Positions 12,115 through 51,089 of a DNA stretch of 64,000 bases are shown piece by piece; position 1 is the first letter of the stretch, and each line of letters opens with the position of its first letter. The notes below the pieces were generated by a model. The model searched no databases and was not told the DNA's origin. It saw only the letters and a program-made list of their open reading frames with translations. Position numbers and translations under genes: made by a program. The stretch comes from a virus (Duplodnaviria; Caudoviricetes). The stretch is from IMG/VR virus record IMGVR_UViG_3300020577_007794; one strand, 5' to 3'.

Positions 12115-12525
12115 ATGGATATTACCTATCTACCGGTTCCTTATAGTCAAGTAGAAGCTCTTACTGGAAATAAGTATTCAATACTTATTGCCAATGAGGA
12201 TTCTGTTCTCTTCGACTCTTCTGTGCTAACACTTGTAAAAGCTGTTGTCTACGATGACGTGTATTACGATCAGGAAGATGAACTTGATCCCCAAAAACAG
12301 ATGTTCAGTTTTAATATGGACATTAGGTATATACGGGAAACAAGGCTGCAAGATGTAGTGAAAGGAGAGTGGGAGATGTCTTGTGGACCAGCGGATATAG
12401 AAGAATTCCTAAAGCATTACGAAGATGTTAATCCCTACTCCATAGTCAAGGTTTTGGCCTTGCAACCAGTTAGTTATGACCTCAGAGCACTCAGAAAATC
12501 CTTTAGAGAGATACGAAACAAATAA
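12115..12525 (+). CDS. hypothetical protein
   Basis: 136-aa ORF. Confidence 0.65.
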   Translation: MDITYLPVPYSQVEALTGNKYSILIANEDSVLFDSSVLTLVKAVVYDDVYYDQEDELDPQKQMFSFNMDIRYIRETRLQDVVKGEWEMSCGPADIEEFLKHYEDVNPYSIVKVLALQPVSYDLRALRKSFREIRNK

Positions 12526-13222
12526 ACTTGTTAATGAGCAGACAGCTTTTAACATATCTGCCCCTATTTCTGAAGATGAGTTCGAGGACTCCCTGCAAAA
12601 ATTAGGTGCTTTTCTACTCTCCAACACACAATGGAATAACACTGTACGCGGAAGACAGACGTTAAAAAACCTTCCCATAGTCAGTGACGTTGTTCTATTA
12701 TGTAAGGGTGCTCTCTGCGAGTACCACGATCTTTGCCCCATAATGAAGAATATGTCTCCAGAAGACAAGGAAAAAATCATAGGAACACCTTGTAGGGCAG
12801 AAAGAATCTACGGTGTTACCCTGTTTTCCGATCTTGTTAGAGACTTAAGCATAGACCCTGATCAAACTATTGACCTTATTGACGCAGCTAATGTAGTGAG
12901 ACTGATGATCTATAGGAGAAGGCTGGACTGGATGATGAATATTCAGGGCATCAGTATAGAAGGTATTGTAGCAGTTGACCCTATTAACGGCTCCCCTTAC
13001 ACTGAAACTAAGGGACACCCCCTCCTCAAAGAGATAGAGAGAATTGATAAAATGATCTCTAATGCTCGAAAAAATCTTGTGGCAAGTAGAAAAGACAGAA
13101 TACAACTAGCCTCACAGCTTGGAAAGGGCCAAAATGTCCTAAAAAGTCTGTTTTCAAGATCAGATGCAATTGTTGTAGAAGCGGAAACCCTTCCACCCGC
13201 AGAAGAAGAGAAGGAAGAATAA
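12476..13222 (+). CDS. putative terminase small subunit
   Basis: Upstream of TerL; Cys cluster CKGALCEYHDLCP...C; helical C-terminus HPLLKEIERIDK...LVASRKDR. Mostly positional evidence. Confidence 0.5.
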   Translation: MTSEHSENPLERYETNKLVNEQTAFNISAPISEDEFEDSLQKLGAFLLSNTQWNNTVRGRQTLKNLPIVSDVVLLCKGALCEYHDLCPIMKNMSPEDKEKIIGTPCRAERIYGVTLFSDLVRDLSIDPDQTIDLIDAANVVRLMIYRRRLDWMMNIQGISIEGIVAVDPINGSPYTETKGHPLLKEIERIDKMISNARKNLVASRKDRIQLASQLGKGQNVLKSLFSRSDAIVVEAETLPPAEEEKEE

Positions 13223-13225
13223 TAA

Positions 13226-14200
13226 ATGGACAGCACCAATATCTTTTATGATAGATTAATACCTGGATTAGCTGCTGGTGCAGCCGGTGCTGCTTTAGGT
13301 GCTGCACCAGGTGCTTTGACAGGACATTGGGGAGTTGCTGCTGTAGGGGCCGTAGGGGGCGGTATTATGCTTGGCACTCCTTGGGGCCGTGAATTGATCG
13401 GGAACGGCTTTAAACGGGCATTTGGGGGCCTTCGTGGGGGTGCTGTAGGTTTAGGGAAGGGTGCTTTAGCTGGTGGAGCAGCATTAGGTGCCGCTGGGTT
13501 GGCCGGTGTTGGAAACTTTTTCAAAAACGGAGGTGCGGCTAATCTTGGGAAAAACTTGGGTTATATGGGAGCCCAGTCCGCTGGTAAATTAGGTATTGGT
13601 GGATTAAAACTTCTTGAACACGCTATAGGTGCTGCAGAGGCTTCATTTATTGGGGCAGCTAATCTTCTTGCTGGGAACCCGTTTGGTGGGGTTAATAAGG
13701 CCCGTAATACTTCAGAAGCTTTCAACTTACTATTTCCGTACAGGAACAACCCAGACCTCTTCAATCCCCTTACTAAATCCAAGCTTATGGGAAGCCTTAA
13801 ACCTAACGCTGGGAAGGCTGGGAGAAAGTTTATAAGTGAGCTTAAAGAAAACAACGGTGTGCTTAATATCACAGGTAAGACCCTAAAAGATAATATGAAC
13901 CATTTTGATCCTGAGGCTAAGTTGTTTGAAGGGATGGTTGAGGGTCATATTGGTGGTACAGCCACTCTTGGCCACGCTACTAGTGATGCAAGACGTGTTG
14001 GATTGAACCCCAAAGTTGTTAGAAGGCTGACCGCAGGTGCTTTTGCAGCTTCGACGTTAACTGGCCTAATGGGTGCTATGGGAAATGACTCCCCTGAACC
14101 CACTGTCTACTACTCTGGTGGGAATATACGCCACATGAATGATATGGGGGCTGATGCACACTATGCAAAATCTTTAATGGGTAGGGGAACTAGAAGATAA
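13226..14200 (+). CDS. Gly/Ala-rich (glycine-zipper) putative virion/ejection protein
   Basis: Repeated GxxxG hydrophobic helices. Confidence 0.6.
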   Translation: MDSTNIFYDRLIPGLAAGAAGAALGAAPGALTGHWGVAAVGAVGGGIMLGTPWGRELIGNGFKRAFGGLRGGAVGLGKGALAGGAALGAAGLAGVGNFFKNGGAANLGKNLGYMGAQSAGKLGIGGLKLLEHAIGAAEASFIGAANLLAGNPFGGVNKARNTSEAFNLLFPYRNNPDLFNPLTKSKLMGSLKPNAGKAGRKFISELKENNGVLNITGKTLKDNMNHFDPEAKLFEGMVEGHIGGTATLGHATSDARRVGLNPKVVRRLTAGAFAASTLTGLMGAMGNDSPEPTVYYSGGNIRHMNDMGADAHYAKSLMGRGTRR

Positions 14201-14679
14201 TGAACCCATTTAAAGTTCTATTTGGCGGCACTGCTGCCGGTATGAAAACTGTTTTCTCGTCTGCAGAGAACAAAGTTTTACACAATTTTAGAGGTTTGGG
14301 ACTTAACGCTGTTCTAAACCTTGTTGTACCAAGTGCTATTACCTTAATGACTGCCCCGCCACAGGAGAGGGGTAGAGAATTAGCTGCGAATGCTGGTTTG
14401 TTTCTTTTAACAGCTGGCATGGCCCCTGGAAGAGCGTTTGTTGCCCAAGTTGGCCTACAAGCAGCATCCCATTCAGGGGACTTAATCCGCTTAGTTTCAA
14501 ACTCTAACCGTTCCGCATTAGAGGCTAGAACCATGGCTATGGTGCCATTTTCTTACTCAACTGCGCCTATGGATTTGGCGTTTGCTTCTATGCAGTATTC
14601 TAGTCAACAGGTAAATCAAGCATACGGTACTGTAGGTAATGAGGCAGCATTTATGGCTGCTAGGTACCTACAACGCTAA
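14200..14679 (+). CDS. Ala-rich hydrophobic putative virion protein
   Basis: Translationally coupled; hydrophobic helices. Confidence 0.6.
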   Translation: MNPFKVLFGGTAAGMKTVFSSAENKVLHNFRGLGLNAVLNLVVPSAITLMTAPPQERGRELAANAGLFLLTAGMAPGRAFVAQVGLQAASHSGDLIRLVSNSNRSALEARTMAMVPFSYSTAPMDLAFASMQYSSQQVNQAYGTVGNEAAFMAARYLQR

Positions 14680-14685
14680 TAAATC

Positions 14686-17600
14686 ATGGATATTTTCGAC
14701 CCAACAGCACTACCGCCAGATCTTAGAAGAAAGCTTCAGAAAGCAAAAGAAGATCCCAGGTTTTTTACAGAAAACTTTTTAACGGACCCAAATTCCGATA
14801 AGGGGGAAAAACTTTTCCAAGCAAATACCCCTCAAAAAGAAATATTTGCGTCTAAAAAGTTAAGTACCTGGATCTGTGTTCACCGTCGAGCTGGTAAAGA
14901 GCTCCCGCACTACGAAGTAGTTTACACGCCCAGTGGCCCCGTAAAAGTTGGTGAGTTAAACGTCGGGGATAGAGTCTGTATTCCTTCTGGAGGAACTGCA
15001 GAGATAATTGATATCACAGAACCAAATCTTTCTGAAGTTTGGCGGCTTACCTTATCAGACAATACCCACATTGACTGCAACAAAGAGCACGAATGGTTTG
15101 TATTTCTCCCAGAAAGATCTGAAAGTGTTACAGTAACCACAAAACAACTCTCAGAGATTCTGAAAGAGACCCCTGCCCGAATTTACAACGTAAAACCTGC
15201 TTTTGGTGATGAGCGTGATCTAAAAATTGATCCCTATAAATTCGCTTTCACAGCTAAAGGGTTCATTCCCCAGGATTACTTATACAGTTCAGTCAATCAA
15301 AGAGCACTTCTCTTGAAGGGGTTCGTGGATGCCCAGTCCGCCAAGGTTGTTGATGACAGACTTAACCTTAAATTTCACTGTAGCAGATTATCCTGGTCAG
15401 TAGCAGAATTGGCTAGAACTCTGGGTGCTGTGGTGTTTGTAAAGGGTGGGGATTTGGAAATAATTCTTCCAAAAGATCTTCCAGGATTTTCAGGGGTTGG
15501 TAAAAAAGTACTTTTTAGGGATGTTGTATCCGTAGAAAGGACTAGAAACGAAACAGTAATGAGCTGTATTACTGTTGACCACAAAGATCACCTTTTTATT
15601 ACAAGCGGGCATACACCAACACACAACTGCCTAACTTACGATAACTATGTTCTAAATCCAGAAACTCTGCGGCCTATTAGAATAAACGAAGCGGAGAACT
15701 TTGAAAAAACCTTAGCTTTTGACTTTGATACCAATAAAGTTGAGGAAACTGAGTGTTCGTGGAACTTTAATGGGGTTAAGACCTGTGTCAAACTGTATTT
15801 GGGGACAGGTGTCGCAATAGGTTTATCTACAGATCACGAAATTTTTGAGCATAAAAAGGGTTGGATCCCTGCTGGGGAACTAAAAATAGGCGATAAAATT
15901 CTAGCCCCGTCAAAAATGCCTTGTGGTGTAGAGGAGGCAGGGGAAGGAAGCTGCAGCCTGTTTGCAAAGATAACAATGCAGGATGACCGAGTACCTGACG
16001 AAGTTTTCAAGTTGAATGAGAAATCTCTCAGCCTCTACCTTAAAGAATTATTTGGGGTGTTTGGGAAGGTTCTTTCTAGGCGGTGTGAGTACAGACTTCT
16101 CAAAAAATCATTAGCTTTTGACGTTCAACATCTTCTTCTAAGGCTCGGTATTGAATCCAGGGTTGATAAGTGCGGTATTCTCAACATAGAGAATTCAATA
16201 GATACTAATACCTTCCTAGTTAAAGTACTTAACTTAGATGTTCCACTCCTAGATGTAAGATCTTCAAGGCGTTGGGAAATCGTAGTGGATATCCAGAATT
16301 TGGGTAGCAGGAAGGTTTTTGACCTCTCTGTCTTCCACCCAGACTTTAACTTTATCAGCAACAACACAGTTGTTCATAATTCCTACTCCTTTACTGCATT
16401 GGCTTTATGGTACGCAGTAACCCAAGAAAATAAGCAAATTATCATCTTTTTCCCTGGTACTAAGCAGGAAAAAGAATTCTTTGACATTATTGACAAGTGG
16501 ATTAACGTAAATGAACTGCTTCAGGCTTTCAAGTCTCCCACAGGCAACACAAAAGATCCTCAACAACGATCCTTCATAACAGGCACCACAATAACTGGGC
16601 AGATCCTATCCGGTACAACTATCCGAGGTTTGACGGCAGATATTGTTTTTGTTGACGAGGCTCAGGAGCTTGATGAGGATGATTGGAGACAGGTTGACCC
16701 TATTATTCTTGGTGACTTTACCAGAAGAGGGAAGGTCAAAGCTTGGATTGCTGGCACCCTTTACGCCCCAGAAGGAAAGTATTACGAAACAATTAGAGAC
16801 TTCAAGAATTCTGGTAAGAAGCCACCTAATTCTGATGTTATTTTCCTTCCAATAACACAAAACGCAGACTACCTTCCTGAAGACATTGAGGAAATGCAAG
16901 CTAAGGTAACTCCAGGAAGCTGGAGAACTGAATACCTTCTTGAAGTTGGTGATGCGGATACCTCAGTTTTCTCGGTAGATACACTTAACGATGCTTTCTT
17001 CCAGGACTACGAACCTGGACCCCATATGATTAGGGAGAATTGTGTAAGGTTTCTCACTATTGACTGGGATAAGTATCAGTGTGGAACCAACATACTAATC
17101 ACACAATACGACCCTAATTCCAAGACCCTTGAACTTCTTCATCATGAAGAGGTAAAAGACCCAATATTTACATATATCACAGCTGTAAACCGCGCTGTAG
17201 CACTATGGCAGGAATTTAGATGCAGACTTCTGATAGCTGATAAGGGTGCTGGTGAAGGACAGCTTGAAATGTTGATGGAAGCTGGGATGAAAAATCCTGG
17301 AATTGAACTTCTAGAAAACATAGTTCCAGTCTCTTACAGACAGAATGTAGAACTGCAAGACCCCAATTCCGAAGAGGTTTTGAAGGAGAACATAAAGTCC
17401 TTCCTGGTGGGTAGATTAAAACTTAAATTACAGAGAAATCAAGTTAGAATCCCGCACCACAAGAAAGAGATATATGACCAATTTCTCGGGTTTAAGGTTG
17501 TTAAACAGACGGATAACACTGTAACATATAGCAAAAAGAACGAACACATTGTTGACTGTTTCTTGTTCGCTGTGTACGGTGTTCACCTTATGTACGAAGA

Positions 17601-17772
17601 TGAGTTCTTGGATTACCATGATGCTTCGATGAGTGGTGAAATAATGACCTATTCTCACCAACCTGCTCTTCACAGAGGTTTCGAGGTGATAGAGGATGAT
17701 GATGGTAATGTTATGTCCTCTTTCCCCCTTAGAAGCAATATAAATGTACCCTATAGAAGGAGTCTGTTTTAA
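14686..17772 (+). CDS. terL: terminase large subunit with two tandem inteins
   Basis: Walker A HRRAGK/S split by the inteins, IRGLTADIVFVDEAQ (Walker B), LTIDWD and EHIVDC (RNase H-type nuclease); spliced product about 534 aa. Confidence 0.93.
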   Translation: MDIFDPTALPPDLRRKLQKAKEDPRFFTENFLTDPNSDKGEKLFQANTPQKEIFASKKLSTWICVHRRAGKELPHYEVVYTPSGPVKVGELNVGDRVCIPSGGTAEIIDITEPNLSEVWRLTLSDNTHIDCNKEHEWFVFLPERSESVTVTTKQLSEILKETPARIYNVKPAFGDERDLKIDPYKFAFTAKGFIPQDYLYSSVNQRALLLKGFVDAQSAKVVDDRLNLKFHCSRLSWSVAELARTLGAVVFVKGGDLEIILPKDLPGFSGVGKKVLFRDVVSVERTRNETVMSCITVDHKDHLFITSGHTPTHNCLTYDNYVLNPETLRPIRINEAENFEKTLAFDFDTNKVEETECSWNFNGVKTCVKLYLGTGVAIGLSTDHEIFEHKKGWIPAGELKIGDKILAPSKMPCGVEEAGEGSCSLFAKITMQDDRVPDEVFKLNEKSLSLYLKELFGVFGKVLSRRCEYRLLKKSLAFDVQHLLLRLGIESRVDKCGILNIENSIDTNTFLVKVLNLDVPLLDVRSSRRWEIVVDIQNLGSRKVFDLSVFHPDFNFISNNTVVHNSYSFTALALWYAVTQENKQIIIFFPGTKQEKEFFDIIDKWINVNELLQAFKSPTGNTKDPQQRSFITGTTITGQILSGTTIRGLTADIVFVDEAQELDEDDWRQVDPIILGDFTRRGKVKAWIAGTLYAPEGKYYETIRDFKNSGKKPPNSDVIFLPITQNADYLPEDIEEMQAKVTPGSWRTEYLLEVGDADTSVFSVDTLNDAFFQDYEPGPHMIRENCVRFLTIDWDKYQCGTNILITQYDPNSKTLELLHHEEVKDPIFTYITAVNRAVALWQEFRCRLLIADKGAGEGQLEMLMEAGMKNPGIELLENIVPVSYRQNVELQDPNSEEVLKENIKSFLVGRLKLKLQRNQVRIPHHKKEIYDQFLGFKVVKQTDNTVTYSKKNEHIVDCFLFAVYGVHLMYEDEFLDYHDASMSGEIMTYSHQPALHRGFEVIEDDDGNVMSSFPLRSNINVPYRRSLF
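14899..15627 (+). mobile_element. class 3 intein (243 aa, Glu at position 1) with degenerate LAGLIDADG domain
   Basis: ELPHYEVVYTPSG start, block B HEW, block F SCITV, THN end (WCT triplet). Confidence 0.88.
15628..16380 (+). mobile_element. class 1 intein (251 aa) with degenerate LAGLIDADG domain
   Basis: CLTYDN start, STDHEIF block B, VFDLSV block F, VVHN/S end. Confidence 0.92.
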
Positions 17773-19043
17773 TGTCAAGCCTATTCTCTAAACTTATAGA
17801 TCAAAGGGAGATCAAGAAGCATGTTGATCAAAGTCTAAGTGGGTCTAACGATCAGACACTGCCACAGATCACTATAAAAGAGGCTATATTACGAGGTAGG
17901 ATAAAACCCACTGATACAGTTCAACGAGTCCAAGATAATCTAGACTTTGCTGCGTCTGCTCAAAGACAGATAGAGTTGATCATAAATGAGGTTACACAAA
18001 CTAACTCTACAAACCCAGTTTACACTGCATATTTTAACGCAGTAAAACTGGCCAACTTTAATCCAGCAGAGATGTTGTCTGGGGGTACACCTCCACCCCC
18101 CCTTCCACCTGCAAATGCATTGAAGGTTGTAGAGAGGGCTGTTTTTAGAACTCAAACCGATCCTAGGGCTATCCTTGTAAAGGATTTGTACAGGACACAG
18201 GCACAGGCTGGCGTTGTTCAATATGTTTATGACAGAACTTGGTCAAAAGCAGCCGCCCCTAACAATCTGTTTTCTGAGATTCCAACTTCTTCGCTAAGCA
18301 ATCTTCTTTTCTCTAAGGATAAGCAATTTGTAGAACTGGCCCTTTCTCAGGCAAAAACTATAGGTGAGTTGACTGTTCCAGGATTAACAGAGGGTTTCTT
18401 TGACAATATAGCAGAGATGATATATGCGACCACCAATTCTGTTCAACAACTTGGTGCTCAAATTGATTTTCTCTCCCAAGGTAGGATAAATGATCAGTTC
18501 GATCAATATTATTCTTTAGACCAATCTGTTGAAACTATCCTTGGCAGTATGGTTGATTACTCCTACTATAAAATGATTTCAGCTAAAGAAGCTGCAATCT
18601 ATTTTGGTGTCTCACCCTCCCTTCTTAGAAGTACAGATAACCTAGAGCTTCTGTCAAATCCTGTAAAACCTGTACAAGAACTTTACACTTTCAGAAAAGA
18701 AATAGATGAAAGGCTTTTAAACAGCTTGAGAAGAGTTGAGGAAGAACTTTTGACTTTAGAGGGCAAAGTGATTCAGGTTTTTGAAGTAAGAGCTGAAATC
18801 ATAAATACAATCAACAGAGCTTGGGTTATAAAGGATATGGTGTCAGCAGCCAGCTCATTTTCCAACTTCACTAACCTTGATTTTTCAAATCCTGAAAAAG
18901 TTGCAAACAGCCTCCTGCATGTGGTTGATAGGGTTAGAAGTGCTATTTCGTTGTCTAGGAAAATCAAAGTTCCCACATTCTCAGAAAAAGAAATATCTGC
19001 AGCTGATGCGTTAAATAAGTGGTCGTTCAGCATAAAAAACTAA
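17772..19043 (+). CDS. hypothetical virion-module protein
   Basis: 423-aa ORF coupled to TerL. Confidence 0.7.
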   Translation: MSSLFSKLIDQREIKKHVDQSLSGSNDQTLPQITIKEAILRGRIKPTDTVQRVQDNLDFAASAQRQIELIINEVTQTNSTNPVYTAYFNAVKLANFNPAEMLSGGTPPPPLPPANALKVVERAVFRTQTDPRAILVKDLYRTQAQAGVVQYVYDRTWSKAAAPNNLFSEIPTSSLSNLLFSKDKQFVELALSQAKTIGELTVPGLTEGFFDNIAEMIYATTNSVQQLGAQIDFLSQGRINDQFDQYYSLDQSVETILGSMVDYSYYKMISAKEAAIYFGVSPSLLRSTDNLELLSNPVKPVQELYTFRKEIDERLLNSLRRVEEELLTLEGKVIQVFEVRAEIINTINRAWVIKDMVSAASSFSNFTNLDFSNPEKVANSLLHVVDRVRSAISLSRKIKVPTFSEKEISAADALNKWSFSIKN

Positions 19044-38801: not shown

Positions 38802-41800
38802 ATGTACCATAACGAGAAAGGTGAAGGGTTTACCGGTAAATTAGCAACCTTTGCTACTTTTGCAGGAATAACCGCAATAGCTCTAGGCTCCGCTCCTACA
38901 ATTGGGCGGAGCCTAGGACGTATTGGTGTATCACTAGCAAAGGATATTGCTGATAATCCTAGCATGTTTAAGTCAGTTCTAGGCCATGGTTCAGGCCTGA
39001 ACGAATCTAAACATGTTTTCTCAGATGTCTTCAACTTCATAGCAGATGAGCTTCCAAGATTAGATAACGTAATATACAGTGGTAATGCTCACACCACTAG
39101 AATGGAATCCATGCTTGACTCGTTAGCTTCTCATGTAGATGAAGCTAGTCAAGATATATTTAAATCAAAGAGGGGTGAAATTGGGGACGCTCTGCATAGT
39201 TTGGTCAAAGGTGTTGAAAAAGACAACATTGATAAACTTATGTCGGACACCCTTTTTAACAGATTTATAGAATCTTCTCAAGGGGTCCAATTCAAGTTCA
39301 TGGACCAAAAAGCTGCCACTGCTGGGGAGAAGATACTCAAGCAAAGACAGGAACTCACCCAAATCTTATCAGGTGCGTTGGAACGTGCAGAAACTGCGAG
39401 ATTCACAGCTAGTAGAACCTCAAAACAAATACTTAATACTGACAACAATCTGAATGTTGTCATGGATGCAGTCCACTCACATGTTGATCAATTAGAATCT
39501 ATAGGTTTAAGAAATCACCGGTGGATGGGTGATCAAGGGTTGACAAGACTCACAATTGGTGACATAACTATGGGTGGTGATGCTCATGATGCAGTAACTG
39601 AGTATCTCAAAAAGATTGGGGTGGATCATGAATACCACGGTAAAGCCCACCAATCACTTTTAGGGTTCATGGATGAACTAGATTTTAGTACCCTTGGTGC
39701 CAACGCAAAGTCAGATCTTATCTCTAAAATACACTCCCTAGATAGTGGGCTTGTTATGGATAAAGGGGGTAAGGTCTTTTCTATGGCCCACCCATTTAAC
39801 ATAGCAAAGGCCACTGCCTCTAGAACCTTACAAAATTTCCAAATACCACTAGTTCCAGGTGTCTTTAATATTCCAGGAACCCTTGGTAAATTCATGGCAC
39901 CAGATCTCGAAGGTATTAAATACCTTGGTAAAATGGGTATGCAGGGTGAGTTGAGAAGGGCTGGGGCGTTGTCTGGTCTCTCAGAAGATGCGTTTGGTGT
40001 AGCAATTGGTGACAGACTTATTGCCTTTGATGGTGATACAGCAAAGCATATAAATATAAAGGCCAACTTTATTAACACCTCTGCCTCAGAACATGCTAAA
40101 GAATTCGCTAGAAGTAGGGGTCAGGATGTTGAAGATCTTTTCGGTTCGTTTAAGGATTCTGTTGATGATGATGGAATTCTAAAAGCTGCATGGAATTACG
40201 TAAAGAAGAACGACGAACATTCTCACACCTTCCTTCAAAAAACATTGTTCGGTAGACAGAATGAGCTTTTTGACTTAGCATATACTGACAATGGGTTCAC
40301 ACTAGTTCCAAAAAATAATATTGGGGATGCAGGTGTGGCGGCAGCTCTTCATTCTGTCGGCAAGCTATCTGGGCTTGACTCTTCGGCCATAAACCCAATT
40401 TTGATGTCACGGTTCTTGGAGAACGGTGGGGTAGAAAATCTTCCTGGTTCAGCTTTACAAGATGCCTACAGACAGGTTTTCACACATGCATCAGCAGCAA
40501 ATGTTGACAGCAGTGCTTTTCTTAAACAAGCTGCTGATAAACTAAATTTCGATTCGTATGGTGAGTATGGCTCCCAGATTCAAGAACTGCTTAAAAACTC
40601 TAATGACCCAGCAGCTTTGCTTCATGCCATCACTACAGATAGCGGTAATGGCAGTCTTTTAGATAACTATAGCACCATCTCAAAGAACATCTCTCCAGAA
40701 TTATCAAGAGCTATAGCTGCAGTTGGGGAAAACAGTGATAGGCTTATGCAAATTGGTCCTAACCCTTCGGGACTGTTTGATAAGCTGAGAGATGGTGTAA
40801 TAGGTACAGACACACTTTCATCTCTCCACCTTCAGTTGCAGAAAGGTTTGGTTTCAGAAACTGTTCGACTTTCTGGTATTAATGAACTCACAACTCTATC
40901 AGGAAAGTCTCTCAATGAAACCTTAGACATACTGCACACCAACTCTGACCCTGCCTTAAGAAGAGCAGTCGCAGAAAAATTAGGATTAAAGTCATCATCT
41001 GATATTGGCTCTATAATTGACACCCTTAAAGAGGGGTTGGGAAGTGACACTTATGGAGATATTGGAAGACTTGTTTCTCCTATGGCGGATTTTGAGTCCC
41101 TGTTCGGAATGTCAAACGAACCTCTTGTTAAGGCTAAAATAGCTGAAGCAGCTAGAGTAGACTCTGTACTGGCAGCATATTACAGCAAGAATTACGAATC
41201 TCATAGTAAGATCATGGAAGGGTTGGCAAGGGGTGCCAATGTATCTGAGGCTGTGGCTAAGAGATTTGGTCTAGGTGGCGCAAACTTTACACCGGCAGAG
41301 TTTGATAATGTTCCTAAATTCTACGCTACAATCAAGACAGGTGATTTTGGGCCAGTGGAGCCTGGGTTTGGTTTCCTAAATCAACTAAAAGATTATGCCT
41401 CCAGTATAAATGCAGGTAGTTTTGCTCGTGGACTAGTTGACCCTAACGAGCCTATGTCTCACGCAGGGTTTGTGACTAATATTCTAATGCACATGCCTCA
41501 ATCTGTAGGTAATGCTGTAGGGCTTGGTCTTAGTTCACAAGAAGGTTTAACAGTAGGTAGATCTGTAGCAGGATTTGCTGTAAAAAGAGTTCTCCCTGCT
41601 TTTGTAGCATTAGAGATTTACAAAAACTACAATGCAGACATGCACAATATGGGTATGCCTGGTGTTGATGATATGGCTGGCAATGCGTATGCTAATGTAG
41701 GTTTAGCAAAAGCCAGAGTATTCGATGCTTTAGGTTTGACTGGTGCTTTAAAAGGATTAGTTGGAGCAGTGCCAGGTCTTGACCAATACGGCCACCCTAA

Positions 41801-44800
41801 ATCAGAAGAAGAGTTCAATGAAGAATTGTTTTACGGAGATGAGGCTGTACGTCGAGGAAGATTCTTTGTCATTGGCAGTAGAACCCCATTCACTGGTGGT
41901 GCAGTAGAGTATTTAAGACCCAACTTCTATAGAAGAATGAAGGCTCACTGGACAGAAGCTAGCAACGTCCAGCTTTCTAATCCCAAATACTCATTCCTTC
42001 CAACAATAACAAACCCACTTGCACCAATAAACAGGCTTCTCCATTCTGATTGGCAGGAGGAGTTAACTGAAGAAGATAGGCCTTATATGACAGGCAATCA
42101 ACTTCATGAGTTCCTTAACAACCAGCATCCTGGAGTTTATTTTGAGAATGCTCCGGTCGGTGGAGACGGTAATATTGGTTATATCAGTTACGGGGCTGGC
42201 CTACCAACCACTGTAAAGGCGTTTAGAGGCCTTTCTGGGGGCTTTAGCGGGGCGGGGGGTCCTGGAGGACCTGATTCTGGTTTTGGTGGCTCTACGGGCT
42301 TCTCAGGGGGCAGTGGGGGCGGCTCTGGTGGCAATACCCTAGGTAATGCTTATTATGAGCCTGGCACTGCTAAAATCAAGATTGGTAACAGAAAAGATAT
42401 ACCAGTAGATGCCCTTGAGAGAGATGGACTTCTATCTTATCTAGGAAGTATGGGTGAGGAGGCTACCAGACACATGGGGCTGTATGGTGGTATTCTAAGA
42501 AACTCCCCACTCAAATATGAACATGAAGGTATAGAAGTACAGGACCCAGAAGTAGCCTTTTCTAATAAAAGACTGTTCTTTAGTGGAGAATTTGGTGAAC
42601 TTACTGGCCCTGTTGGTGAATTTTACAGAAGGTTTATCTCAGAAGAGCATCAGTCTTTTGATGCGTTTAACCCTCTCCCAAACAGAATGCCAAGCTGGGT
42701 GCCTCAAAGATTCAGAACTGGTGACCCGTATATGCGAGTCTCTCATGGTGAATTCAATCTCCCAGGCGATGCCTATGAGCGACTCCACCCATACACTAGA
42801 CCTTTAAAAGCTAGAGGCTCTATGATTGGTCTTGAAAAGGATGAGATTGTAGCTAAAATGCTTGACCCAGTTGGTGCATACGAATCCGAGTCAGCAGAAG
42901 ACATAATGGGTTATGGTACGGCTACGCACAAACGTATCATGAGACAGCTTAGCAAGACTGGGATGATGGTGGGTGCTGAAGTTGCTGGATACGATCCAGT
43001 GCATAATATTTCAGCTACAATCGAAACTGTTATGAGAGGGCAGTCTGGTCTTGAAGTTGTAGAAATTAAAACCAGAGGTAATGAAACATTTAACACAGAC
43101 CCTGAAAAGTACGTTGATCAGTTGATGTTTTACATGTACCTTACCGGTGCAAAGCAAGGAAAAATTGCTCACGTTAATCGTGACAACCCCAACCAAGTCA
43201 GATTTGCAACATACAAATATGATGAAAATAGGATGCAAGCTGTTTTTGAAAGGGTGGAAGAGGCAAGGGGTGAGATCAGGGAAATGGTAGAAAAGGGGAT
43301 AGTTTCCCCCTACGAAACCTACGATCTTCTTTCTAGAATTGAAATCTTAGCTAAGACAGCCCCAGACTCTCCTGAATTTAGGGAGTATGTACACCATGCG
43401 CAGACTAAGGGTGGCTTTGGTGGTATGGAACAGGTTCGATTTGAACGTGCTATAAAATCGGCTCAACTTCTTAGAGAAGACTTTAACATCTATCCGTATA
43501 GAAACGTACCTACTGAAACTCGTGCTGCTAGAGTTAGGGGATTTACGGATGAAGGTGAAATTGTCACCAATATGGGTGTCATTAAGCTCGCCGGTGTGAA
43601 GTGGGATAAACAAGCTTTTACCATGCAAGACCCTGAAGATCTTATGTCTCAGTATGGAATTGTAGCAGGAAAAAGCATAAACATCACCCTTCCACAAGGA
43701 GGTTTTAATCCTGAGGTTATGGAAGATGTTACTACGTCTGCTTTGGTGGGTAATGTAAATAGCCGATTGATTCATTCCCAATATGCAGACCCAGACTATG
43801 CCGATAAATCAGCCATGGGTTCCCTTGCTAGGCAGGACAAATTAAACAGTCTTTTAGAGAAACTCCTTCACTCAGATAATGTTATCAGCAATAAATGGCT
43901 GAGGGTGAGGAGTGGTCTTGAGCAGTTTGAGCGAGGTGAAGTTTTCGGCACTGAGAACCAATCTTATAGAGATCTTTGGGGCAATTATATAGAACCAACA
44001 TTCAATATGGTCGTCTCCAAGAACCCTATTACTGCTGCTCTTCAAGGCGGTATTGTTACCTCTTTCTTCGTTAAAGGAAGGGCGGCGAAGGGTAAAGCTG
44101 CTTTGATTGGTGGTGCAGTAGCAGGATTGATATCTACAGGTAGGTTGGCCTATCAAGCTGTGACTGGAGAGACCCAAGTACCCCATAGATACAGGGCTCA
44201 GACAGAATTTGATGAGTACTACGACCTATTAAATTACATAAAACAGGCATCTCTGGGGGCGTCTGCGCAAAATCATGTCTATAAAAAGGATAAAACAATG
44301 AAAGATCAATTGGATTATTCAAATGTAAGTAGAACAAGAGAACAGGTGGATGCCTTCGGGGTGCTGGCTCTAGAGGCAGAAAGAAAAGCTAGACAAACTA
44401 TGTATGGCTTCGATGTAGTGAAAGGCACGTTGCAGGACGCACTAGCTGCTATACCACGACGACATAGACAGATAGCTGAGTCTGTAATTGTTGACGGGAC
44501 ACAGAGTGAAAAAGCTAAGTTCTATAACCTCCTTCCAAATTCGGAAAGAAGAGTATTAGGTAAGTTTCTCGGTAAACCACAAAGCTCTCTACCAAGTAAG
44601 CCTAGTCTCAATAACTACTTCAAGAATCACTTCCTTCCTGACGCTGACTGGTTGGGTTGGCACCGAAATGTTGACTTAGAAGACATAAAGACAAGAGCCG
44701 CAGCTTTAGAGAAGATGAAGATTGATCAACCATCAAGATCAAGAGTCAGTAAGGCTAGAGCTTATACCAGAGACATCCCAGTACCCAAAATGCACTCGAG

Positions 44801-44975
44801 TTCCCACAGCAGTATTAGTGGTCTACTACAGAGACTTTCTGCTTCAGGGAACATTGGAAGTACCAGGTTCACAACCTCATACCTTCCGACAACAGAAAGT
44901 GCGGTGACTGTGAACATGAAGTTCATAGACCAAAATACCCAAAAAACAGATGAACAAATAACATCACTGCTCTGA
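38802..44975 (+). CDS. giant tape-measure-position protein with TM segments and a PD-(D/E)XK-like domain
   Basis: Follows the chaperones; hydrophobic helices; GTATH...ATIET...VVEIKT...QLMFY. Confidence 0.7.
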   Translation: MYHNEKGEGFTGKLATFATFAGITAIALGSAPTIGRSLGRIGVSLAKDIADNPSMFKSVLGHGSGLNESKHVFSDVFNFIADELPRLDNVIYSGNAHTTRMESMLDSLASHVDEASQDIFKSKRGEIGDALHSLVKGVEKDNIDKLMSDTLFNRFIESSQGVQFKFMDQKAATAGEKILKQRQELTQILSGALERAETARFTASRTSKQILNTDNNLNVVMDAVHSHVDQLESIGLRNHRWMGDQGLTRLTIGDITMGGDAHDAVTEYLKKIGVDHEYHGKAHQSLLGFMDELDFSTLGANAKSDLISKIHSLDSGLVMDKGGKVFSMAHPFNIAKATASRTLQNFQIPLVPGVFNIPGTLGKFMAPDLEGIKYLGKMGMQGELRRAGALSGLSEDAFGVAIGDRLIAFDGDTAKHINIKANFINTSASEHAKEFARSRGQDVEDLFGSFKDSVDDDGILKAAWNYVKKNDEHSHTFLQKTLFGRQNELFDLAYTDNGFTLVPKNNIGDAGVAAALHSVGKLSGLDSSAINPILMSRFLENGGVENLPGSALQDAYRQVFTHASAANVDSSAFLKQAADKLNFDSYGEYGSQIQELLKNSNDPAALLHAITTDSGNGSLLDNYSTISKNISPELSRAIAAVGENSDRLMQIGPNPSGLFDKLRDGVIGTDTLSSLHLQLQKGLVSETVRLSGINELTTLSGKSLNETLDILHTNSDPALRRAVAEKLGLKSSSDIGSIIDTLKEGLGSDTYGDIGRLVSPMADFESLFGMSNEPLVKAKIAEAARVDSVLAAYYSKNYESHSKIMEGLARGANVSEAVAKRFGLGGANFTPAEFDNVPKFYATIKTGDFGPVEPGFGFLNQLKDYASSINAGSFARGLVDPNEPMSHAGFVTNILMHMPQSVGNAVGLGLSSQEGLTVGRSVAGFAVKRVLPAFVALEIYKNYNADMHNMGMPGVDDMAGNAYANVGLAKARVFDALGLTGALKGLVGAVPGLDQYGHPKSEEEFNEELFYGDEAVRRGRFFVIGSRTPFTGGAVEYLRPNFYRRMKAHWTEASNVQLSNPKYSFLPTITNPLAPINRLLHSDWQEELTEEDRPYMTGNQLHEFLNNQHPGVYFENAPVGGDGNIGYISYGAGLPTTVKAFRGLSGGFSGAGGPGGPDSGFGGSTGFSGGSGGGSGGNTLGNAYYEPGTAKIKIGNRKDIPVDALERDGLLSYLGSMGEEATRHMGLYGGILRNSPLKYEHEGIEVQDPEVAFSNKRLFFSGEFGELTGPVGEFYRRFISEEHQSFDAFNPLPNRMPSWVPQRFRTGDPYMRVSHGEFNLPGDAYERLHPYTRPLKARGSMIGLEKDEIVAKMLDPVGAYESESAEDIMGYGTATHKRIMRQLSKTGMMVGAEVAGYDPVHNISATIETVMRGQSGLEVVEIKTRGNETFNTDPEKYVDQLMFYMYLTGAKQGKIAHVNRDNPNQVRFATYKYDENRMQAVFERVEEARGEIREMVEKGIVSPYETYDLLSRIEILAKTAPDSPEFREYVHHAQTKGGFGGMEQVRFERAIKSAQLLREDFNIYPYRNVPTETRAARVRGFTDEGEIVTNMGVIKLAGVKWDKQAFTMQDPEDLMSQYGIVAGKSINITLPQGGFNPEVMEDVTTSALVGNVNSRLIHSQYADPDYADKSAMGSLARQDKLNSLLEKLLHSDNVISNKWLRVRSGLEQFERGEVFGTENQSYRDLWGNYIEPTFNMVVSKNPITAALQGGIVTSFFVKGRAAKGKAALIGGAVAGLISTGRLAYQAVTGETQVPHRYRAQTEFDEYYDLLNYIKQASLGASAQNHVYKKDKTMKDQLDYSNVSRTREQVDAFGVLALEAERKARQTMYGFDVVKGTLQDALAAIPRRHRQIAESVIVDGTQSEKAKFYNLLPNSERRVLGKFLGKPQSSLPSKPSLNNYFKNHFLPDADWLGWHRNVDLEDIKTRAAALEKMKIDQPSRSRVSKARAYTRDIPVPKMHSSSHSSISGLLQRLSASGNIGSTRFTTSYLPTTESAVTVNMKFIDQNTQKTDEQITSLL

Positions 44976-46583: not shown

Positions 46584-49500
46584 GTGGCTAGACTGGATAG
46601 AATAACCAATCTGCCTACCGAACCAGGCGATACGGTTCGAGATAAGAAAACTAAGACCGATTACATAGTCCAGTCTATAGTCCCCTATGTTGTGGGTGGA
46701 GCTAGCTTATACTACCTACTTAACGCCTATACCGGCAAATTAGAACAAGTTATAGCTAATGATTTAAAAGACAGAGACTTTCAACCAACAAGAAAGAATG
46801 TGGAGAGAATGACCCCAGAACAGGTCAGAGAATCTAGATTAGATACGTTGGTACGTGGAATGAAAGGCAACGAAGATCTTCTTCGGAAACTAGAAACACC
46901 AGAAGGCTCAGTATTTCGGGACCTGCTTCTTCTCATAGATGATATGGATGATAGTCAGGTTAAAGAGAAGTTTAGAAAATTTGGAGAAACCTTAGTTAGT
47001 GTAACTGACAGGGTGTATAACTCTACCGAGATTCTCGAGTTGATGCAGCAATCACTTGGGGACTCGGCTTCTTTTTATGGACATGAGTACCTTTCAGATT
47101 TAGCAGAAGAACTCAGTGAATACACTTCTGCAAGAACAGGCACTAATAAACTTTCTACTTACGCTGTTCCAAGATTCAACGCAACCAGAGATATTGCCGG
47201 ATTTGAAAAAGTCAACGGTAAACAGGGTTTTGTAGATAGGGCACTTCAGTACTCACTCAGTAAAAGTGAGAGATCCCTTTCTTCAAGAAAAGAGTTTGTA
47301 AATACAGTAAGACAGACTGTTTTTAATAGAGAAGGTTTCTCTTCCCCAGCTATCAGAAGATCAGCTGGAATGAACGAACTGTTTGATAATATTACCGACC
47401 CATATTCCAGAGTTGCTAAAATGGTAGCTGCGTCTCTTGGGGGGAAAGCTACTGAAGAGACCAGAATTGTAAGGAACATCACCAATAAAATTCTGAATGG
47501 GGACGAAGCTTTAACTGCTGCCCTTATTGACTCAGATATAAACGGTATCTTCTCTAATCTCTATCGTCAAACAACATTTAGAACTAGAGCTGGATTAGCT
47601 AATAAACTCTCAGCTAGAAGAACATCTAGCGCGGCCAGGAGAGCTAGACCTACAAAAAGATTAAATGTATCAAGTCTTTTGAAGGGTATGGACAGAGTTG
47701 GGGATACTGAGAAGTACATATCTATAAGCAAGAGTTCATTAATAAATGATGTTATAGGCTCAAAAAGTGTATCTGTAAATTCTTCTAAAGGTATTGTTGG
47801 GACCCTTAGACAAGACGCAGTTCGCAAGAAAATGGAATCTCTTCCAGAGGTTATTACAATGCCAGCCTCTGTGTTAAGAAAACAGGTGGATTCTAACATT
47901 GTCTCCATTGAAGAGATAGAACTGGCACATAACCAAACACCACAACAAATAAGCAGAGAACTTCGTGGAAAGATGGGTGGAAGAGGTGCTGCGGTTGGAT
48001 ATGCTGGGGCGTTTAACCACAATGCGAAGGCTGCATTTTTCGAGGTCAATGATAAAAAATTTGACACACTAGAAAAGGCTAGAACCAACCTCCTTCCAGA
48101 TCAGAGCATCTATAGTATAAAGGCTTTCAACAAAATGGGGAATGAAATACCTCTTTTCCCCCAGGTAATAAAAGTTGAAACTGATATGGACTTGGTAAAT
48201 GAAAGCTACCACCAAGCCAAAGATGAATCAAGGCTGGCTTATTATACTATACAAAATTCTTCTGGAGAGAAAAGTGTTAATCTAATTGGTTCGTCAATGA
48301 ATGTTTCTATTGATGACCAGATTGACAGAGCCTTCGCAGCTGCTAATACCAGAGGTAGAAGTTCCCTATCTTTGGATATTGAAAACAACCCAGAAACAGG
48401 TGCTATCACAGAGATAGGCGTAAGCTTTAGAGATACCGAAGGTGGTTACAAACCTCACTTCAATTTTGTGGCTGGGAATGGAGAATCTGAATCTAATGCT
48501 ATTCTAAGACTTGTAGGTAGATTGGAAAATGCTGATTATGTCGGCACTATGACAGCCCATGACTTCAGTACACTAGCTTCTAGAGCCATGGCCTTATCCA
48601 AAACCTCACAGAGCCCAACAATGCAGAAGAACTTGGAGGCGGCATACTATAAGCTTCTAGAAATTGAGCAAAAAGCTGGGTATGACTTTACTGTAGGTTT
48701 GACAGCTGCTGGGCAGTTTGGGGATACCCCCTTGACACTTGGTAACATAAGCCAGGATTACCTTTCCCCCAAAATCCTAGGCAGGGCTGAAACTCATACT
48801 GCTATGCAAGATAGTATGGACGCTCTTGAAATCCAAGATAAAATACGGGTTGGAGAGCTTCAAGCAAGCAAAGCAGAACTCGGAACAATCTTCCAAGTAA
48901 GATCAACCAGAGTTAATAGAGACGGTTCTTTTGGGAGATTGACAGGCTTCGAAAGACGTGGTGAAGGAAGTTCAGCCTTATTTGAAGAAATGGTTTTCAA
49001 TGAAGGCCGATTTACCACAACTGGTTCTTTATTTGAGCTTCAAGCTGACGGTACTTCACAGCTTGGTGCTGCTATGCGTGGCCTCATTCCAGTAGGTCAT
49101 GGGGAAGCTGTTGCCCCCAATGTTGATATAAATGAAATGGTTCAATTCACTTCCAGGAGAATGGAAGAAAGAGGTTCCAGAATTATTAGAGGCATCAACC
49201 CGCTTAACACGTCCTATTACGATGCTACAACTAGATTTGGAATTGAAGGTGGAAATCTTTTTGGTCTACACGAACTTTCAGTGGTTCAACAAACCAGAAG
49301 TCTTTTAGGCAGCGAGAAGGCTCAGGAAATTCTTAAAAATGTTGGAAGTATGCAGTTTGATCAGATAGAAGAAGCTGCTAGAGACTTGGCATCAACTGTT
49401 CAACTTGGAGATGACGCATCCAAACCTGGATACCAGGCAAGACTTGTAGAGAGTGTGACAAATGCTTTTACGGATGCACAGTACCGACAATCCTTGACTA

Positions 49501-51089
49501 AATCTTCCCTAACTGATCTTCTTGACTCAGCTGCTGGTAAGTCTTTAGTTGGGATGGCAGAAAAAGGAATAGATGGAAACTTTATTGAACAGTACGCTGC
49601 TCCTGCGTTGAGCCTTTCCTTTATGGGAGAAGTTGCCGGTATTCAGGCACCAACATCGTTTGTTTCCGACCCGAGACTGCGACTTCAAACCTTTGACAGA
49701 TCGGGACCTTTCCAAGGTGCAGTGACAAACGTTCTTGGCTACAATACTACTGAAAGAGAGGTAGAAAACTCTGTCAAGAGTTTGATAGGTCAAACTATGC
49801 TAGCTACCACTTCCAGCAAAGCCCCTGGAGCGGGTGCCTTTATAGAGAATGCAATCGGCCCAGAGGGACTGAACAAAGTAATTGAAAGTGTTTCCTTACT
49901 GAGACAATCAAAAGAGATCAAGGATGACATCCATGCACTCGATGCCCTCTCTACCACACTTTATAGTGACCCCTCTATAAAAAGGTTAGCTGATGCTATA
50001 GATGAATCGGATTTCTTCCACGGAAACATTAAAGAACAGCTTCTTCGTAGAAATGATCTTCTAAGAGAACACAAAGATGCACTAGGTGTTCATGATGTAG
50101 ATATTATTACTGAACGATTTAAAAACATAGTAGAAGAGGAGTTTGCTAAAACTAGTTCTGCATCTTCTGCAACTGCCGCATCTATAAAGAGAGCACAAAA
50201 TCAACTAGGTGATGCCGCACACACTCTATTCTCTGACGTAACACCTGACTCCTTAGATTTTAATGCCATCTCTAAATTAGGTTCAGAGAAGGTTGATGAA
50301 TTAACAAATGATGCACTGAGAAGAATACATGAAATGACCACTCAAGGTACAGGTGGTTCGGATGTATTGCAACATATTTTTGATAAAACAGGTGAACTGA
50401 GAAATGTATACTTTAAGTCTGGTTTATCGCCAAGAGATCAAGCCATAGCCTTAAATGCATTTGTTAAAGAATCTGAAGAAGTCGTTAAATTGGGTTCTCA
50501 GACAACTAACCCTATTGAACTGGTTCATTCAGTGTTCTTGAAGTACCAGAATGCTGCTCAAACAGCAAAAGCTTCCGCCCCAACGTTGACTGAAATGCAA
50601 AGCACTATAGTCAACCAAGCTACCTCACTTGCAGCTAATGCTTCTGAGGATATATCGTTGAAGGAAGTACAACATACTGTTCTTCTTGGCAACAAGATTG
50701 CCAGTGAAATGGAACTCAAAAAAGTTACGGTACCTCTACTAGCTGTAGGAGGTTTGTTAGCTCTTATTGCAGGAAGCAGCAGACCTAAAGAGGAGTATAG
50801 TGGTGGATACGCCAGCAAACAGTCTCCAGGGGTCATAGCGGCCCATTCAGAGATACCCGGCACTGGATCTGGTACCAGAGTCTTTATGGGTCAGGAAGCC
50901 CCCTTCCAAACAACAGTGAATATGACATCCTATGTTCAGTCTGAAAGAGAGAAACAAGCTATACAAACCAAAGTGTACGATATGATTACTGGAACAGCTA
51001 GACCAGTTCAAGTACGAGTAGACAATAAAGACTTTAGAAAGAATGATCACAGAGAAACAGCTATGGAGCAACTAAGACAGGCATTGTAA
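46584..51089 (+). CDS. giant putative ejection protein with a DEDDh 3'-5' exonuclease domain and a C-terminal hydrophobic helix
   Basis: SLDIE (ExoI), AHDF (ExoII), HTAMQD (ExoIII); VPLLAVGGLLALIAG. Confidence 0.72.
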   Translation: MARLDRITNLPTEPGDTVRDKKTKTDYIVQSIVPYVVGGASLYYLLNAYTGKLEQVIANDLKDRDFQPTRKNVERMTPEQVRESRLDTLVRGMKGNEDLLRKLETPEGSVFRDLLLLIDDMDDSQVKEKFRKFGETLVSVTDRVYNSTEILELMQQSLGDSASFYGHEYLSDLAEELSEYTSARTGTNKLSTYAVPRFNATRDIAGFEKVNGKQGFVDRALQYSLSKSERSLSSRKEFVNTVRQTVFNREGFSSPAIRRSAGMNELFDNITDPYSRVAKMVAASLGGKATEETRIVRNITNKILNGDEALTAALIDSDINGIFSNLYRQTTFRTRAGLANKLSARRTSSAARRARPTKRLNVSSLLKGMDRVGDTEKYISISKSSLINDVIGSKSVSVNSSKGIVGTLRQDAVRKKMESLPEVITMPASVLRKQVDSNIVSIEEIELAHNQTPQQISRELRGKMGGRGAAVGYAGAFNHNAKAAFFEVNDKKFDTLEKARTNLLPDQSIYSIKAFNKMGNEIPLFPQVIKVETDMDLVNESYHQAKDESRLAYYTIQNSSGEKSVNLIGSSMNVSIDDQIDRAFAAANTRGRSSLSLDIENNPETGAITEIGVSFRDTEGGYKPHFNFVAGNGESESNAILRLVGRLENADYVGTMTAHDFSTLASRAMALSKTSQSPTMQKNLEAAYYKLLEIEQKAGYDFTVGLTAAGQFGDTPLTLGNISQDYLSPKILGRAETHTAMQDSMDALEIQDKIRVGELQASKAELGTIFQVRSTRVNRDGSFGRLTGFERRGEGSSALFEEMVFNEGRFTTTGSLFELQADGTSQLGAAMRGLIPVGHGEAVAPNVDINEMVQFTSRRMEERGSRIIRGINPLNTSYYDATTRFGIEGGNLFGLHELSVVQQTRSLLGSEKAQEILKNVGSMQFDQIEEAARDLASTVQLGDDASKPGYQARLVESVTNAFTDAQYRQSLTKSSLTDLLDSAAGKSLVGMAEKGIDGNFIEQYAAPALSLSFMGEVAGIQAPTSFVSDPRLRLQTFDRSGPFQGAVTNVLGYNTTEREVENSVKSLIGQTMLATTSSKAPGAGAFIENAIGPEGLNKVIESVSLLRQSKEIKDDIHALDALSTTLYSDPSIKRLADAIDESDFFHGNIKEQLLRRNDLLREHKDALGVHDVDIITERFKNIVEEEFAKTSSASSATAASIKRAQNQLGDAAHTLFSDVTPDSLDFNAISKLGSEKVDELTNDALRRIHEMTTQGTGGSDVLQHIFDKTGELRNVYFKSGLSPRDQAIALNAFVKESEEVVKLGSQTTNPIELVHSVFLKYQNAAQTAKASAPTLTEMQSTIVNQATSLAANASEDISLKEVQHTVLLGNKIASEMELKKVTVPLLAVGGLLALIAGSSRPKEEYSGGYASKQSPGVIAAHSEIPGTGSGTRVFMGQEAPFQTTVNMTSYVQSEREKQAIQTKVYDMITGTARPVQVRVDNKDFRKNDHRETAMEQLRQAL

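Follow-up and report, generated by a model that had tools for sequence, protein, structure and literature searches.

The DNA analysed here is a stretch of 64,000 nucleotides (the window, part of a contig of about 194 kb) from IMG/VR virus record IMGVR_UViG_3300020577_007794 (Duplodnaviria; Caudoviricetes), and the subject of this report is its gene for the large terminase subunit (TerL), whose product is interrupted by two inteins lying directly one after the other. The TerL open reading frame (ORF; 14686-17772, plus strand, as are all the features of the gene given below) encodes, according to the ORF list and its translation, a precursor of 1028 aa plus stop that carries both inteins. The whole insert amounts to 494 codons (14899-16380) and sits inside the ATP-binding loop at one codon boundary, so that the precursor reads ...CVHRRAGK(71) / ELPHY...PTHN(314) / CLTYD...VVHN(565) / SYSFTALALW..., where slashes mark the junctions. 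Intein 1 (I1; aa 72-314, 243 aa, 14899-15627) ends and intein 2 (I2; aa 315-565, 251 aa, 15628-16380) begins at nucleotides 15627/15628, with zero extein codons between them. A first-pass annotation of this DNA had proposed two back-to-back inteins without intervening extein (RRAGK/ELPHY...PTHN/CLTYD...VVHN/SYSF); translation bore this out, and the limits proposed for the insert, 14899-16380, proved exact.

The exteins identify the host protein. The N-extein (aa 1-71, 14686-14898) ends with the Walker A residues HRRAGK and aligns with the intein-free relative P0010 (AVHRRGGK/TYGI), while the C-extein (aa 566-1028, 16381-17769) starts with Ser566, which would complete the Walker A motif (GK-S) once both inteins were gone; the column of Ser566 held Ser or Thr in 22 of 22 aligned relatives. 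The last 463 residues, that is, the C-extein, matched PHROG phrog_2 'terminase large subunit' (9e-18) and, by tblastn, the annotated TerL of jumbo phages. The VDEAQ Walker B motif is conserved in alignments of TerL relatives, and the hallmarks of a large terminase were found together: a Walker A/B ATPase, a C-terminal nuclease, and adjoining portal and head genes, the genes downstream of terL being those for portal, head protease, major head protein and tail sheath. A Pfam scan of the full 1028-aa protein gave no terminase match; inserts of this sort, some 500 aa long, can hide a terminase from domain searches. An identical protein is encoded on a JGI contig of 194,459 bases, which makes the source a large uncultured tailed phage. 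No second terL was present within the 64-kb window of the ~194-kb contig.

Intein 1 and intein 2

Class 3 inteins are defined by a non-nucleophilic residue 1 that co-varies with a WCT triplet, and they reside mostly in the P-loops of helicases and terminases (Tori et al., PMC2807308). The first-pass annotation had noted a Glu at residue 1 of I1 and had placed I1 in this class on account of the segments HEW, SCITV and THN, all of which are present. The triplet consists of Trp137 in block B (His135-Glu136-Trp137, 15088-15096), Cys294 at position 4 of block F (15565-15567) and Thr312 at position 5 of block G. It was invariant in an alignment of 41 homologous sequences, whose only invariant columns were G31, H64, W66, C223, T241, H242 and N243 (I1 numbering; H64, W66 and C223 are His135, Trp137 and Cys294). 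The block B residues are kept in all stacked alleles. Cys294, the nucleophile with which splicing is predicted to start, is kept in these and in all I1-only alleles as well; the initiating role of the block F Cys in class 3 splicing was described by Tori et al. 2010 (PMC2807308). Residue 1 is not Cys, Ser or Thr, being Glu72 in the window and E, Q, M or A at the same column in relatives, and I1 closes with Thr312-His313-Asn314, the terminal His-Asn being followed by the nucleophile Cys315.

Pfam gave a weak Hint_2 match to I1 (0.002). Comparison with PDB sequences by phmmer retrieved the gp41-1 intein (1.5e-4) and the class 3 M. smegmatis DnaB intein 1 (6bs8, 2.6e-4), in alignments that were in register from I1 residue 8-9 and covered the block B H-x-W and the block F Cys, and an exhaustive HMMER search of 1.84 billion representative proteins returned 5177 I1 homologues at E<=1e-3. 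Tallies were made on 176 family members from the 150 best proteins, with boundaries placed by HMMs built from the matches. Most members (128/176) lie directly after a Lys, mostly that of a Walker A GK, and 171 of the 176 end in THN. The +1 residue was T in 104, S in 56 and C in 15, the window's own protein being left out of this count. Residue 1 was A (94), P (28), E (12), C (11), M (10), S (8) or L (6); the Glu emphasized by the first-pass annotation is thus present but not special, as Ala and Pro are commoner. An AlphaFold2 model of isolated I1 was confident to the last residue (predicted local distance difference test, pLDDT, 97.3; predicted TM-score, pTM, 0.93), and Foldseek searches with it returned inteins and Hedgehog domains only (7qsu, 4.9e-10; 6bs8_B, TMt 0.81; 6rix_B, which is MchDnaB-1, TMt 0.82). 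Whether I1 has a HINT fold had been named as a point on which the reading of the insert turned, and the predicted model does match solved class 3 inteins. Sequence and model together place I1 among the class 3 inteins and predict a HINT fold for it.

The insertion domain of I1 (approximately 15139-15498) is the remnant of a LAGLIDADG homing endonuclease, as judged from the alignment, from a helical/strand domain in the model and from Foldseek matches to inteins that carry such endonucleases. Relatives with intact motifs show DPYLxGxLLGDG and LLRGLMDTDGS, both kept in P0013, P0035, P0072, P0082, P0019 and P0031. The window's copy has lost the first motif by deletion and has a degenerate second one (GFVDAQSA vs GLMDTDGS in relatives), which is not the make-up of an active endonuclease.

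The second element had been annotated as a class 1 intein, an assignment that holds. I2 passed the Pfam model Intein_splicing (PF14890; 41.0 bits vs a cut-off of 35.8; 2.1e-10), matched NCBIfam models of intein-containing DnaB, RtcB and RecA, and adopts an intein fold in the tandem model described below. Its class 1 residues, namely Cys315, Ser381-x-x-His384 in block B, Asp546 in block F, His564-Asn565 and Ser566 at +1, are kept in every I2-bearing relative aligned at the site and in P0011; the upstream-site I2 copies of P0007 and P0008 did not align to these columns. These features indicate that I2 is, as far as its sequence can tell, a class 1 intein. Its insertion domain (approximately 15943-16224) is a single LAGLIDADG-like half domain of about 100 residues with the motif ELFGVFGK, in which helices and strands alternate in the model; the match to LAGLIDADG_3 (PF14528) was weak (0.0056, below the cut-off). 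Being one half-size domain whose motif position is non-acidic and variable in all relatives, it does not qualify as an active endonuclease either. An origin of the stack by duplication was ruled out, BLASTP between I1 and I2 having found only generic HINT similarity (25% over 51 aa).

Allele states, conservation and recurrence of the stack

Alleles with zero or one intein, whose existence had been raised as a check on the reading, were all found at the same site, giving four allele states: empty, I1 only, I2 only and stack. The empty state is represented by P0010 (RRGGK/TYGI). I2-only alleles of the form RRxGK/C...HN/S occur in P0009, P0160, P0161 and P0162 and in IMG/VR loci L006-L010, and I1-only alleles of the form RRxGK/x...PTHN/S or T in P0019, P0031, P0050 and L023. 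Because these single-intein and empty alleles fix the boundaries, the residues at the junction (Thr312-His313-Asn314 / Cys315, 15619-15630), where the end of I1 abuts the start of I2, can be apportioned: Asn314 belongs to I1, Cys315 belongs to I2, and removal of both inteins would restore GK-S. Cys315 is at the same time the sole candidate +1 nucleophile for I1, and the shared cysteine proposed by the first-pass annotation therefore stands. One further I2-only sequence, P0006, reads RRAGN/CLAAN, with Asn in place of the Walker A Lys. It comes from a single 4-kb metagenomic contig, and its P-loop would be without lysine after splicing; the Asn could be the scar of an imprecise deletion of I1 (from Lys to His, the terminal Asn being kept) or a point mutation.

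Ten TerL cluster representatives carry the stack with every catalytic residue intact; their C-exteins are 33-88% identical to that of the window (among them P0004, 88%; P0005, 63%; P0013, P0035, P0044, P0072, P0082, P0089 and P0101, 33-42%). Fifteen key residues are identical or conservatively replaced across the ten, and further stacked IMG/VR loci were found (L004/L011, L005 and L012). As P0004 was read on 6 contigs, the places shown for it belonging to two sequencing runs, and as these additional IMG/VR loci are stacked too, an assembly artefact was excluded. A chance pattern was likewise ruled out by the Pfam score of I2, the 5177 homologues of I1 and the ten stacked representatives.

Among the three closest genomes synonymous sites were saturated in most segments, so only the nonsynonymous divergence (dN) could be compared. 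Between the window and its two nearest relatives, dN was 0.07 and 0.29 for I2, 0.08 and 0.30 for the C-extein, and 0.15 and 0.71 for I1; that is, I2 equals the C-extein and I1 is about twice as high. Given these values and the saturation of synonymous divergence (dS), the stack is old, and purifying selection has long acted on both inteins, in what is the one terL gene present in the window. Synteny of head and tail genes around terL is kept in the three genomes. Base composition is alike in I1, I2 and the exteins (GC 0.39-0.42) and therefore gives no sign of recent acquisition.

A separate observation concerns the half domain of I2. Despite having no conserved catalytic acid, it matches the terminase in dN (0.075 vs 0.083, and 0.29 vs 0.30), and this slow rate suggests that it is retained for some function, perhaps in DNA binding or as a structural requirement of splicing, and is not decaying neutrally.

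Zero-gap stacks were also found at the Walker A Lys of two helicases. One, P0030, is of the AAA_30/UvrD type (GTGK/AIPV...VTHN/CLHED...VVHN/TS), and the other, P0085, is an SNF2 helicase (GSGK/FQPL...VTHN/CTTED...VTHN/TY) in which both inteins belong to the WCT type. Cys is residue 1 of the downstream intein in the TerL, P0030 and P0085 stacks alike. Counting the window's protein, 16 I1-family inteins have Cys at +1, and in 12 of the 16 (10 TerL, P0030 and P0085) this Cys is residue 1 of an abutting intein. Among these proteins we found no clear case of the reverse order, although two junctions, in P0071 and P0073, are borderline. There, WCT-type inteins are preceded by ...NYKN and ...IEGN, which may point to more abutting inteins, each with an upstream partner unusual in its penultimate residue. 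The P0071 intein starts with Asp and would break the Cys-start rule if the upstream stretch were an intein.

Probable splicing at a shared cysteine

Very probably, the insert consists of two independent inteins of different classes that share one Walker A site (Lys71/Ser566) and are excised successively, in either order, with Cys315 serving both. Each intein would fold as its own HINT domain and remove itself in a single-turnover reaction, and two successive splicing events would yield a 534-aa enzyme with the loop RRAGK-SYSF restored. If I1 left first, the block F Cys294 would attack the Lys71-Glu72 bond, the N-extein acyl group would pass to the Cys315 thiol, Asn314 would cyclise, and an S-to-N shift would leave GK/Cys315-I2, an arrangement like that of the natural I2-only alleles; I2 could then splice by the standard class 1 route onto Ser566. 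If I2 left first, a Cys315-Asn314 thioester would form, its acyl group would move to Ser566 and Asn565 would cyclise, leaving GK/I1/Ser566, as in the natural I1-only alleles, from which I1 would splice next. Within one molecule Cys315 could take part in only one reaction at a time. Since both intermediates match existing, presumably functional single-intein alleles, neither order is chemically excluded, and either appears to be allowed. As the catalytic residues of I2 are conserved in the only terL seen in the window, we infer that this intein undergoes protein splicing. The order of the elements along the chain, by contrast, seems dictated by chemistry, because the first residue of a class 3 intein, not being a nucleophile, cannot fill the +1 position for an intein that precedes it; a class 3 intein can be only the upstream partner, unless it starts with Cys as in P0085.

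The AlphaFold2 model of the tandem (aa 60-580) showed both domains folded, with a mean pLDDT of 86.9 and a pTM of 0.52, and pLDDT values below 50 were confined to the chain ends and residues 313-317. Foldseek searches with this model matched class 1 mini-inteins (e.g. 1mi8 and 4o1r, TMt 0.84-0.85) and class 3 inteins (0.83). The model fits two separate domains with low confidence at the junction between them.

Several points weigh against successive excision in either order. In the tandem model pLDDT was 53-77 around residues 310-340, where I1 ends and I2 begins with a strand each, and the two active sites may not form simultaneously, which would favour an ordered or mutually exclusive pathway. 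An Asn314-Cys315 thioester made by I2 could promote premature cyclisation of Asn314 and end in a dead-end cleavage. Cys at +1 was rare in the class 3 inteins first described, being found in one of 37 (PMC2807308). Moreover, the splicing of either intein, its intermediates and its order are all deduced from sequence.

An obligate order, in which one intein must leave before the other reacts, is the alternative closest to these points, and we consider it possible though unlikely. I2 might have to go first so that I1 meets a flexible extein with Ser at +1, or I1 might have to go first because Cys315 is a free nucleophile only before I2 folds. Both active sites converge on the Asn314-Cys315 dipeptide, and the drop of pLDDT below 50 at 313-317, with the pTM of 0.52 of the tandem, stands against the confidence of isolated I1 up to its last residue; model confidence, though, is no evidence on kinetics, and the natural single-intein alleles have each family at work in just the setting that prior departure of the other would create. 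The first-pass annotation had expected order-dependent splicing, and in this respect the comparison did not support it, since I1-only alleles have Ser or Thr at +1 and I2-only alleles have Lys at -1. Its further suggestion, that the double excision acts as a post-translational gate on packaging, is speculation, which the data neither support nor contradict.

Two other explanations seem to us very improbable. According to one, the 494-aa insert leaves as a single unit, the N-terminal chemistry of I1 cooperating with the C-terminal chemistry of I2 while the internal junction is never cleaved. An unused junction would not require the strict conservation of Thr312-His313-Asn314 and Cys315 seen in the ten stacked alleles; besides, each intein exists alone at the same site, and the tandem model contains two HINT domains without confident mutual packing. 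According to the other, which we would credit just as little, the phage is defective, its terminase being dead or decaying or one of the inteins having lost the ability to splice. It is true that the endonuclease domains of both inteins are degenerate in the window's lineage, and that the search for another terL covered 64 kb of the ~194-kb contig, yet the 1028-codon frame is intact, relatives conserve all residues for splicing as well as the ATPase and nuclease motifs of the extein, purifying selection is strong, with dS saturated, and synteny with head and tail genes is maintained in three genomes. Two independent inteins excised one after the other thus remain the reading we favour.

Known inteins, history of the site and neighbouring genes

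Class 3 P-loop inteins of phage terminases and helicases are well described (PMC2807308; PMC5050341; bioRxiv 10.1101/2025.01.02.630785), and the position between Lys and Thr has been called the 'classic' P-loop site (Kelley et al. 2016, PMC5050341). Like the inteins of mycobacteriophage Bethlehem DnaB (PMC2807308), TerL1-a (PMC5050341) and Msm DnaBi1 and MchDnaB-1 (6bs8, 6rix), I1 carries the WCT triplet, starts with a non-nucleophilic residue and ends in His-Asn, lies between the Walker A Lys and the next Ser/Thr, has relatives with a LAGLIDADG endonuclease, and matches them in sequence and predicted fold. It differs from them in that the residue that follows is Cys1 of another intein instead of extein, and in that half of its endonuclease is deleted. 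I2 resembles class 1 inteins, which may or may not carry a LAGLIDADG domain (Ssp/Npu DnaB, Mtu RecA, PI-SceI and TliVMA), in its Cys1, Ser/Thr-x-x-His, Asp, His-Asn and Ser+1 and in its fold match; unlike in these, the terminal Asn of another intein precedes it at -1 and its insert is a single LAGLIDADG-like half domain without a conserved catalytic acid. Two inteins in one ATPase gene, near the P-loop, are also known from haloarchaeal MCM-a/MCM-d (PMC10643990) and M. smegmatis DnaBi1/DnaBi2 (PMC6195587), where alleles with none, one or both likewise occur and the same question of co-homing or interference arises. In those pairs, however, extein lies between the inteins and the junctions are separate, whereas the stack leaves no gap and a single Cys is part of both active sites. 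We found no description of natural abutting inteins in the literature searched, most subscription journals being outside its reach.

Both inteins are of known classes, and it is their zero-residue stacking that has consequences which the separated double inteins compared here do not have. A single cysteine would act as acceptor nucleophile for the class 3 intein and would also, as nucleophile, initiate the splicing of the class 1 intein, and the 'extein' of each intein would be a folded HINT domain. The stack thereby offers a natural test of the need for extein context and flexibility, and of competing, cooperating or ordered splicing reactions. It also suggests that occupancy of a homing site need not keep out a second invader, and that the sequence rule (a class 3 intein first, then an intein starting with Cys) follows from chemistry. 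A class 3/class 1 pair that is naturally compatible at one junction could guide sequential or orthogonal splicing designs.

As to its history, the degeneration of both endonuclease domains argues that the stack was inherited vertically in the window's lineage. Across the ten stacks, the I1 endonuclease retains both LAGLIDADG motifs in four, is degenerate in three and half deleted in three, while I2 is uniform, a pattern that fits I2 being an old resident and I1 an element that comes and goes. Different allele states intermingle on the C-extein tree, stacked P0013 being sister to I2-only P0006 (99%) and stacked P0082 to I2-only P0160 (88%); this tree has long branches and is poorly resolved, with 8 of its 19 inner branches open. 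Correlations of pairwise identity among stacked alleles, by which vertical and horizontal descent might have been told apart (extein-I1, rho 0.32; extein-I2, 0.14; I1-I2, -0.07) were uninformative at their divergence (35-45% identity).

A tentative idea is that the stack is no accident, a class 3 P-loop intein having colonised the site of an old, endonuclease-dead class 1 intein, so that one intein parasitises another. We would be no less hesitant about the details of such a colonisation, in which Cys1 of the resident would serve the invader as +1 nucleophile and the DNA of the resident would provide both a target half-site and a homology arm; conversely, the endonuclease of the invader could carry the resident along into empty alleles. 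Colonisation fits the presence, within stacks, of all homing-cycle stages of I1 vs a uniform I2, the pairing of stacked and I2-only alleles as sister taxa, and the Cys-start rule for the downstream intein in two unrelated helicases.

Other arrangements were seen at or near the site. In P0007 and P0008 an I2-type class 1 intein at an upstream site (TWF/C...HN/C) is followed by 8 extein residues (C[IV]HRRAGK) and then by an I1-type class 3 intein whose LAGLIDADG domain is complete, and P0011 and IMG/VR locus L024 carry the upstream-site intein alone; from these architectures, the I2 family uses two sites 8 residues apart. Two TerL relatives (L032:1-3402 and L033:2128-5637) have two class 1 inteins three extein residues apart (GRR/C...VVHN/TGK/C...ISHN/TWTM). 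Spacers of 3-6 residues between inteins (CGK, TGK, STKSGK, CKGPGK and SGTGK) occur in other ATPases (P0023, P0054, P0062, P0014, P0036, P0092 and P0131). The 1517-aa TerL of L012:3986-8536 bears, in addition to a zero-gap stack, a third I2-like intein in its Walker B region (ADVTL/C...LVHN/CDEAQ).

PHROG scans of the four ORFs flanking terL gave no match. The two beside the gene (12476-14679 and 17772-19043), although without PHROG match, are syntenic in two related contigs. Farther on, the window contains three very large ORFs, at 38802-44975, 46584-51089 and 51801-59771 (2057, 1501 and 2656 aa, respectively).

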